Shown here: in pieces, positions 59,790-59,990 of the stretch
Layout: the number at the start of each line of letters is the position of its first letter
Numbering within the stretch: position 1 is the stretch's first letter
Assembly: GCF_003334765.1 (NCBI RefSeq)
Contig: NZ_QOWT01000002.1
DNA length: 64,000 bases
From: Escherichia coli
GTDB lineage: Bacteria; Pseudomonadota; Gammaproteobacteria; Enterobacterales; Enterobacteriaceae
Strand: one strand, 5' to 3'
Notes under the pieces: generated by a model
The model's database searches: none
Told to the model about the DNA's origin: nothing
What the model saw: only the letters and a program-made list of their open reading frames with translations
Translations under genes and position numbers: made by a program

Positions 59790-59990
59790 CGCATCCGGCA
59801 TTTGGTTCCTGTCGCCGGATGCGGCTTGAACGCCTTATCCGGCCTACAAAACCATACAAATCAGTATGTTGAGCTTATTGTAGGCCGGATAAAACGCGCC
59901 AGCGTTGCATCCGGCATTTGGCTCCTGTTGCCGGATGCGGCGTGAACGCCTTATCCGGCCTACAAAACCACACAGATCATGATGTTATGT
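59790..59990. repeat. BIME: two near-identical REP copies separated by a spacer
   Basis: Two roughly 64-bp copies of gcatccggcatttggYtcctgtYgccggatgcggcRtgaacgccttatccggcctacaaaacca at about 59792-59855 and 59910-59973. Confidence 0.8.

Follow-up and report, generated by a model that had tools for sequence, protein, structure and literature searches.

What does an array of repeats do when it fills the gap between two genes that are transcribed towards each other? In a 64,000-nucleotide (nt) stretch of Escherichia coli DNA (contig NZ_QOWT01000002.1; the whole stretch is called the window here), the genes preA (+) and mglC (-), identified from the open reading frame (ORF) list and NCBIfam matches, converge on a spacer of 242 nt. 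A preliminary description made from the letters of the DNA had placed a large bacterial interspersed mosaic element (BIME) in this spacer, with two near-identical repetitive extragenic palindromic (REP) copies. The presence of a BIME was borne out by the REP catalogue, by repeat searches and by matches to a hidden Markov model (HMM) of REP units: the preA–mglC array is REP156, an already catalogued, ordinary REP/BIME element. We consider it likely that the array is an atypical BIME whose best-supported activity lies at the RNA level, as hairpins that protect 3' ends, and whose copy number changes by recombination. The best-supported reading of its role is a stack of 3'-end protecting hairpins for mglBAC and a leaky barrier between the convergent operons, rather than a full terminator.

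RNA 3' ends at the array

The evidence for an activity at the RNA level came from published 3'-end maps. In the Term-seq data for strain MG1655, grown in lysogeny broth (LB) to an optical density (OD) of 0.4, one 3' end dominates on the minus strand; it maps to 2236530 and has a mean of 51513 reads (Adams et al. 2021, PMC7815308, Supplementary file 1). Placed by the flanking sequence given in that table, this end corresponds to window position 59810, where the RNA has the 3' sequence ...GCAUCCGGCGACA and extends 4 nt beyond the foot of Y copy 1 (Table 1), the last REP hairpin on the mgl transcript. Because its 3' end lies at 59810, the mglBAC transcript crosses the whole array. The resulting mgl 3' untranslated region (UTR) runs from 60022 to 59810 (213 nt) and folds at -104 kcal/mol (z -7.9); its last 100 nt form one long Y-L-z2 hairpin that leaves a single-stranded 3' tail of 4 nt. 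The preliminary description had stated that such elements can stabilise upstream mRNA, and the position of the mapped 3' end, at the base of the final REP stem-loop, supports this statement.

No hairpin followed by a U tract, as expected of an intrinsic terminator, was found in the spacer beyond a single weak minus-strand candidate inside the z2 unit, which did not exceed the expectation from shuffled sequences. A terminator at the mglC-side hairpin (59980-60022) was also tried and rejected, as its stability was like that of shuffled sequences (z -0.7 and -1.1). Further downstream on the minus strand, a Rho termination region was mapped at 2236028 (window 59308; Rho score 7.46, p 3e-13) and a second 3' end at 2236360 (window 59640), antisense to preA (Adams et al. 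2021, PMC7815308). Given the 3' end at 59640 and the Rho region at 59308, mgl read-through extends about 170-500 nt into antisense preA. The end at 59640 follows a hairpin and UUUUCU in 59630-59700 (-19.7 kcal/mol, z -3.1), inside antisense preA.

In a published model, Rho stops transcription downstream and exonucleases trim the RNA back to a protective stem-loop (Peters; Dar and Sorek), and REPs have been described as dual terminators and stabilisers, including at convergent gene pairs (bioRxiv 10.64898/2026.03.23.713779). The mgl 3'-end data fit both views. According to these published data, mglBAC transcription passes through the array and meets Rho-dependent termination about 500 nt further on, inside antisense preA. 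In the mechanism that we propose, the transcripts would then be trimmed 3' to 5' until the stacked G+C-rich hairpins halt the exonucleases. Transcripts of preTA on the other strand may be trimmed in a like manner, and a Rho-binding site located at the stop codon of preA would assist in this. A NusG-dependent Rho-binding peak from in vitro selection, P_N10_2270, spans 59744-59812, which includes the 3' end of preA as well as the first hairpin arm; it was labelled 3_UTR sense and 'Proximal' to REP156, 3 nt away (bioRxiv 10.64898/2026.03.23.713779). At the DNA level, the L linker would bind IHF (integration host factor) and the Y units may draw gyrase. Copy number would shift when direct repeats recombine and when the interior of a palindrome is deleted, possibly with the aid of the REP-associated tyrosine transposase (TnpA-REP, RAYT), and it is to these events that we would attribute the many natural alleles of the locus.

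Anatomy of the array

The stretch of 601 nt around the spacer was 100% identical to E. coli K-12 MG1655 and to many K-12-like genomes, and from the MG1655 gene coordinates the window corresponds to NC_000913.3 2176721-2240720. The element studied here is therefore identical in sequence to REP156 of K-12 MG1655 (where preA = yeiA), catalogued at NC_000913.3 2236535-2236684 between convergent preA and mglC (supplement, bioRxiv 10.64898/2026.03.23.713779). The MG1655 RefSeq annotation has only coding sequences at this site and no repeat feature. In window coordinates the catalogue span is 59815-59964 and takes in the three full REPs only; the repeated structure is wider on both sides, reaching left to 59783 (half z2 and S) and right to 59986 (partial L). 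Its left edge thus lies slightly beyond the 59790-59990 of the preliminary description.

A repeat search found a direct repeat of 88 nt, 59783-59870 and 59899-59986, with 89% identity (78/88) and a start-to-start distance of 116 nt. The best ungapped self-alignment (match +1, mismatch -2) scored 59, against 9.0 +/- 0.95 and a maximum of 12 for 100 dinucleotide-preserving shuffles of 59600-60200, so the repeat is real and far beyond chance. The two near-identical copies of roughly 64 nt described earlier were recovered as its cores (59790-59853 and 59906-59969, 60 of 64 positions identical). They are not single REPs: each copy of the repeat combines a z2 REP head and an S linker with a Y REP and the first part of an L linker, and the array holds three full REPs and a half. 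The copies are indeed separated, as had been stated, and the supposed spacer between them is made up of what remains of the L linker and of the body of the z2 unit, which is a third REP in inverted orientation.

We read the layout from the sequence, a REP HMM built from seven window units and run with nhmmer, the alignment to the Rfam naRNA4 model and alignment to canonical loci. The order of the array is half z2(-), S, Y(+), L, z2(-), S, Y(+), partial L (Table 1), and the 116-nt direct repeat reflects a duplication of the [z2 head, S, Y, L] unit. The half z2 is what remains of an inverted REP that other strains have in full, directly next to the preA stop; a full z2 was found at this position in E. 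coli SCPM-O-B-8794. The alignment of the complete inverted unit to the naRNA4 model extends over the entire Z2 half and includes compensatory G-C and A-U changes; z1 units from five canonical BIME-1 loci are shorter by 7 nt. On the strength of this alignment and of the additional length, we identified it as z2 and not z1. Judged by its alignment, the L linker belongs to the BIME-1 L type but diverges from it and is 3 nt shorter.

Table 1. Features of the preA–mglC spacer and its borders in window coordinates, with MG1655 (NC_000913.3) coordinates where available.
Feature	Window position	MG1655 position	Strand	Sequence	Basis or remark
preA ORF	58539-59780		+		NF006183 PreA equivalog, 688 bits
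preA stop codon	59778-59780		+	TAA	first hairpin arm begins 7-11 nt downstream
In vitro Rho-binding peak P_N10_2270 (NusG-plus H-SELEX)	59744-59812	2236464-2236532	+		supplement, bioRxiv 10.64898/2026.03.23.713779
Half z2-type REP	59783-59800		-	loop CCAG and head arm GACGCATCCGGCA	direct repeat start; weak nhmmer match 59788-59801
S linker (short, head-to-head), copy 1	59801-59813			TTTGGTTCCTGTC	aligns to linker of Rfam naRNA4 (Y-S-Z2) model
Y REP, copy 1	59814-59847		+	GCCGGATGCGGCTTGAACGCCTTATCCGGCCTAC	nhmmer 42.2 bits; hairpin -20.2 kcal/mol, z -4.3; CTAC foot
L linker (long, tail-to-tail), 32 nt	59848-59879			AAAACCATACAAATCAGTATGTTGAGCTTATT	aligned with six canonical z-L-Y E. coli loci
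Exact IHF core consensus (predicted site)	59859-59871	2236579-2236591	+	WATCARNNNNTTR (AATCAGTATGTTG)	inside 32-nt L linker
z2 REP, inverted, 37 nt	59880-59916		-	GTAGGCCGGATAAAACGCGCCAGCGTTGCATCCGGCA	nhmmer 34.1 bits; hairpin -20.5 to -21.2 kcal/mol
Y-S-z2 head-to-head pair	59883-59960		- (mglC mRNA strand)		Rfam RF02564 (naRNA4) 88.3 bits, E 1e-16
S linker, copy 2	59917-59928			TTTGGCTCCTGT	direct repeat and naRNA4 alignment
Y REP, copy 2	59929-59963		+	TGCCGGATGCGGCGTGAACGCCTTATCCGGCCTAC	nhmmer 46.4 bits; hairpin -23.1 kcal/mol, z -5.4
Partial second L linker (L')	59964-59986			AAAACCACACAGATCATGATGTT	end of direct repeat
Unique tail to mglC stop	59987-60022				weak hairpin, fold z -0.7 and -1.1
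mglC stop codon	60023-60025		-	TGA	ORF 60023-61033
mglC ORF	60023-61033		-		NF007014 MglC, 641 bits

All units of the array sit between the stop codons of preA and mglC, and mglA is located beyond mglC. An invasion of the coding end of preA by a REP was considered and rejected, as the stop position and the homologous C-terminus were the same in Citrobacter and Kluyvera when orthologous loci were compared. Two small ORFs located within the repeats, 59802-59945 and 59918-60049, were taken as spurious. A scan of the spacer found no promoter-like site inside the array or the spacer.

Folding and class of the element

The units have the properties of REPs. Each of the three full units is a palindrome of 34-37 nt, within the 30-40 nt of REP stem-loops, and on either strand has a folding energy of -20 to -23 kcal/mol (z -3.9 to -5.4). 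When 19 REP units, some from alleles of the preA–mglC locus in different strains and others from elsewhere in the window, were aligned, 95.2% of the pair cells were paired, compared with 28-41% when the partners were slid, and three pairs showed changes on both sides (compensatory). The GTAG/CTAC feet are present as CTAC at 59844-59847 and 59960-59963 and as GTAG at 59880-59883; the foot is missing from the truncated left unit and is mutated in some strains (GCAG in O157, ATAC in B2 strains). The stem carries the conserved mismatch, with columns 11-12 (GC) unpaired against columns 27-28 (TT) in 18 of the 19 units. Columns 27-28 are TT in all 19, and the one exception, unit w49710_z, has AC opposite them. 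A mismatch of this GC/TT type is needed for binding by the REP-associated transposase TnpA-REP (Ton-Hoang 2012, PMC3333891). The element is also extragenic and of high copy number: a 601-nt query containing the array matched a median of at least 38 places per E. coli genome.

Class assignment was made by comparison with the known kinds of BIME. With BIME-1 (also RIB/RIP; z1, L and Y with an IHF site) the array shares a tail-to-tail pair split by an L-type linker, recognised by the L alignment and by the exact IHF core within it. It differs from this class in that the partner of Y is the 37-nt z2 rather than z1, and in that the element is duplicated, whereas BIME-1 is a single-copy pair of z1 and Y tail-to-tail. 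With BIME-2, and with REP325 and naRNA4, it shares the Y-S-z2 unit arranged head-to-head across S, which aligned to all 77 positions (1-77) of the naRNA4 model. The differences here are another locus, one complete unit versus six, and a flank of L type; the tandem copies of BIME-2 are joined by s, l or r motifs, and the tail-to-tail linker of the array is not of these. An atypical BIME is a chimera of BIME-1 and BIME-2 (Bachellier/Gilson nomenclature per Ton-Hoang et al. 2012, PMC3333891). Because Y, z2, S and L are mixed in more than one copy, we filed the array as an atypical BIME; it has the Y and z2 units, the S and L linkers, the multiple copies and the strain-variable copy number of that class, and nothing essential differs, its L being 3 nt shorter than usual and its left-most unit truncated.

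Comparison across species and E. coli alleles

The adjacency of preA and mglC is kept in Escherichia, Citrobacter and Kluyvera. In Citrobacter the spacer is 56-61 nt long and is a bidirectional intrinsic terminator (AAAAAAGCCCGGTGCAG...CTGCACCGGGCTTTTT, -31 kcal/mol on both strands), and the Kluyvera spacer has a bidirectional intrinsic terminator of the same kind. This terminator shares with the array its position, its palindromic logic and a stable hairpin on both strands. In contrast, the array is without flanking A/T tracts, and in K-12 the mgl transcript reads through and Rho stops it further on. All five Escherichia lineages examined have REPs instead of the terminator, with an architecture of its own in each lineage: half z2, S, Y, L, z2 in E. 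whittamii, head, L, z2, S, Y, L' in E. albertii, and shorter forms in Escherichia sp. E1V33 and Escherichia sp. MOD1-EC7003.

Between preA and mglC, Kluyvera georgiana, K. cryocrescens and Pseudocitrobacter have an additional ORF, hydrophobic and about 150 amino acids long (locus L025, 2778-3242; likewise L027 and L023), for which no NCBIfam match was found. The Pseudocitrobacter spacer also holds a canonical z1-L-Y BIME-1.

The preliminary description had suggested comparing copy number at this site across strains, and the comparison showed 0 to 5 full REPs among E. coli. The 242-nt spacer with three full REPs and a half is found in about half of genomes (K-12, O157:H7, O55:H7, O145, UPEC 536 and JJ2434), and a 70-nt spacer with three 10-nt head arms and no full REP in about 47% (O121:H19 and many others). 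A 126-nt spacer with one repeat unit accounts for about 1-3% (HB6, ECONIH5). Rare forms are a 55-nt spacer in BS-01, in which the remnant is shortened further, a complex rearranged form of 258 nt in MN06021, and a 280-nt spacer with five REPs in SCPM-O-B-8794. These shares were estimated from evenly spaced rows of the BLAST ranking: the full 322-nt span of the query was present in 30 of 60 such rows, and 2,848 of 5,426 E. coli genomes covered at least 80% of it, a count to be read with the 126-nt allele in mind, which still covers 89-94% of the query.

The 126-nt HB6 allele is a chimera in which the 5' diagnostic bases of copy 1 are joined to the 3' part of copy 2, and it therefore carries the signature of a deletion between direct repeats. 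All three alleles that were folded (the 70-nt, the 126-nt and the K-12 form) keep at least one strong G+C hairpin. In SCPM-O-B-8794 (locus L007, 2737-2780) the full z2 abuts preA so closely that a TAG stop codon falls inside the GTAG foot of the REP, the only strain with this arrangement. In some strains preA is annotated as a pseudogene, with a frameshift in JJ2434 and an internal stop in strain B1.

It is possible, although doubtful at present, that in Escherichia the REP array replaced an ancestral bidirectional terminator and that the allelic series of 0-5 REPs might tune the expression of mgl (galactose uptake), of preTA (pyrimidine catabolism), or of both. If this were true, the locus would be a natural experiment on REP copy number versus 3'-end formation, antisense read-through and mRNA stability. 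REP and BIME elements have been known since the 1980s, and the array has little value as a discovery. Its value lies in the corrected anatomy, in the Term-seq end tied to the last REP hairpin, and in the contrast between Escherichia, with its REPs, and Citrobacter and Kluyvera, with their terminator. The nearly even split of E. coli between three REPs and a REP-less remnant also provides natural alleles for the debated terminator and stabiliser roles.

Alternative explanations

Several observations weigh against reading the array as a stack of protective hairpins with accessory sites for DNA-binding proteins. For preTA, no plus-strand (preA) 3' end appears in the Term-seq tables of Adams et al. 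2021. Genes ended by REPs show no genome-wide difference in mRNA half-life (bioRxiv 10.64898/2026.03.23.713779). Only one dominant 3' end is tabulated at the array, and it may stem from exonuclease trimming or from pausing and termination. Since about 47% of E. coli are without a full REP, the array is dispensable and any effect is quantitative at most. As to gyrase, neither mglC nor preA is mentioned in the gyrase Topo-seq supplements (PMC6379681).

The extreme polymorphism in presence and copy number, the different architecture in each Escherichia lineage and the decay of the GTAG/CTAC feet in some lineages are what would be expected of a selfish or neutral repeat without locus-specific function. 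Such a repeat would be seeded by TnpA-REP and recombination in convergent intergenic DNA as a safe landing site, and the RNA 3' end would be a by-product of any stable hairpin. Strain-variable copy number is in addition a known property of BIMEs (Ton-Hoang 2012, PMC3333891). We regard this explanation as rather unlikely for the array as a whole. The RNA 3' end at the array is strong and defined, and all three folded alleles keep a strong hairpin where other genera have a terminator, which points to selection favouring a hairpin, though not necessarily REPs. The IHF core is exact in 8 of the 12 L or partial-L linker copies of the compared alleles while neighbouring linker bases vary. Every complete tail-to-tail L has the exact core except one of the two in MN06021 (GATCAG), and the three further copies without an exact match are partial-L linkers, found in K-12 (with O157, HB6 and JJ2434), in UPEC 536 (with A4) and in E. 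albertii. The same conservation, with the exact WATCARNNNNTTR core kept in the L of K-12, O157, B2, E. albertii, E. whittamii and the five-REP allele, is an argument for an architectural role, in which IHF would bend L between the tail-to-tail Y and z2 units, as in RIB/RIP elements, and provide local nucleoid structure or a block to supercoil diffusion between the operons. The L linker probably does bind IHF, as judged from its letters. As the principal function of the array this role is nevertheless unlikely, because the site is a prediction, the second L copy has lost the core (GATCATGATGTTA, degenerate and without an exact match), and the one-unit (126-nt) and 70-nt alleles, about half of genomes, are without L. 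The 13-nt degenerate core is also weak alone, with 11 matches in 128 kb (both strands of the window) against 4.9 expected.

Other explanations start from single parts of the element. The hairpin that begins 7-11 nt after the preA stop (10-13 bp, 59787/59791-59826, -21.3 kcal/mol, z -3.1; the stop ends at 59780) could lower PreA output through stalled terminating ribosomes and tmRNA (transfer-messenger RNA) tagging. Liang, Rudd and Deutscher reportedly observed in 2015 that REPs within 15 nt of a stop codon lead to ribosome stalling and tmRNA tagging. The left part of this hairpin is kept in every Escherichia allele seen, but it is a head-to-head pairing with a 14-nt loop and not a canonical REP, and in the centroid structure the competing fold of the Y REP itself prevails. 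We consider this proposal quite unlikely. A strong gyrase site of the BIME-2 kind, independent of transcription, where cleavage in the Y units would relieve positive supercoils between the convergent operons, appears very unlikely. The element contains the BIME-2 core unit Y-S-z2, and gyrase cleavage sites are over-represented in BIME-2 with a preference for Y units, yet only a subset of BIME-2 elements is cleaved (Sutormin 2019). The locus has one complete Y-S-z2 unit and no long array, its flank is L and not s, l or r, and the silence of the Topo-seq supplements on both genes counts here as well. The Y units may still attract gyrase. Finally, the array might encode a nucleoid-associated non-coding RNA like naRNA4, which together with HU would bridge cruciform DNA and condense the nucleoid, a role proposed for the Y-Z2 units of REP325 (Qian 2015). 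The match to RF02564 lies on the mgl-transcribed strand and exceeds the gathering score of 59.5 bits. Because a second match occurs in the window at 646-716, it shows only the generic Y-S-Z2 unit and is not specific to this locus. The nucleoid role itself is disputed, as REP325/naRNA4 gave no measurable nucleoid compaction (bioRxiv 10.64898/2026.03.23.713779), and the tabulated RNA 3' end lies beyond the Y-S-z2 unit rather than at its border. We regard this last explanation as extremely improbable.

REP units and other features of the window

A search of the window with the REP tail motif CTTATCMGGCCTAC (at most 2 mismatches) gave six matches against 0.51 expected. All four further sites at which the preliminary description had reported REP units (600-745, 42855-42900, 49670-49713 and 56013-56050) do contain them. 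Its statement that the window is REP-dense did not hold. The genome-wide figure of 697 REP units in 355 loci per 4.64 Mb (bioRxiv 10.64898/2026.03.23.713779) predicts 9.6 units and 4.9 loci per 64 kb, and nhmmer found 9 units, together with 2 fragments, in 5 loci, which is the genome average. The BIME at 600-745 has a partial Y at 607-625, an inverted z-type unit at 642-679 and a Y at 684-719, and its pair at 646-716 passes the Rfam naRNA4 gathering score with 64.5 bits.

Within mglC, an sRNA (small RNA) candidate, 'mglC int', has its 3' end at 2237260 (window 60540, -) and probably arises from a promoter within mglC (Adams et al. 2021, PMC7815308). Elsewhere in the window, an Rfam OrzO-P antitoxin RNA match at 27643-27718 (+; 101 bits against a gathering score of 60) suggests a type I toxin-antitoxin-like locus. 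Two further Rfam matches were above their gathering scores, the Peptidase-S11 RNA motif at 48154-48234 (-; 72.8 bits) and a TPP (thiamine pyrophosphate) riboswitch at 8571-8667 (-; 71.2 bits).

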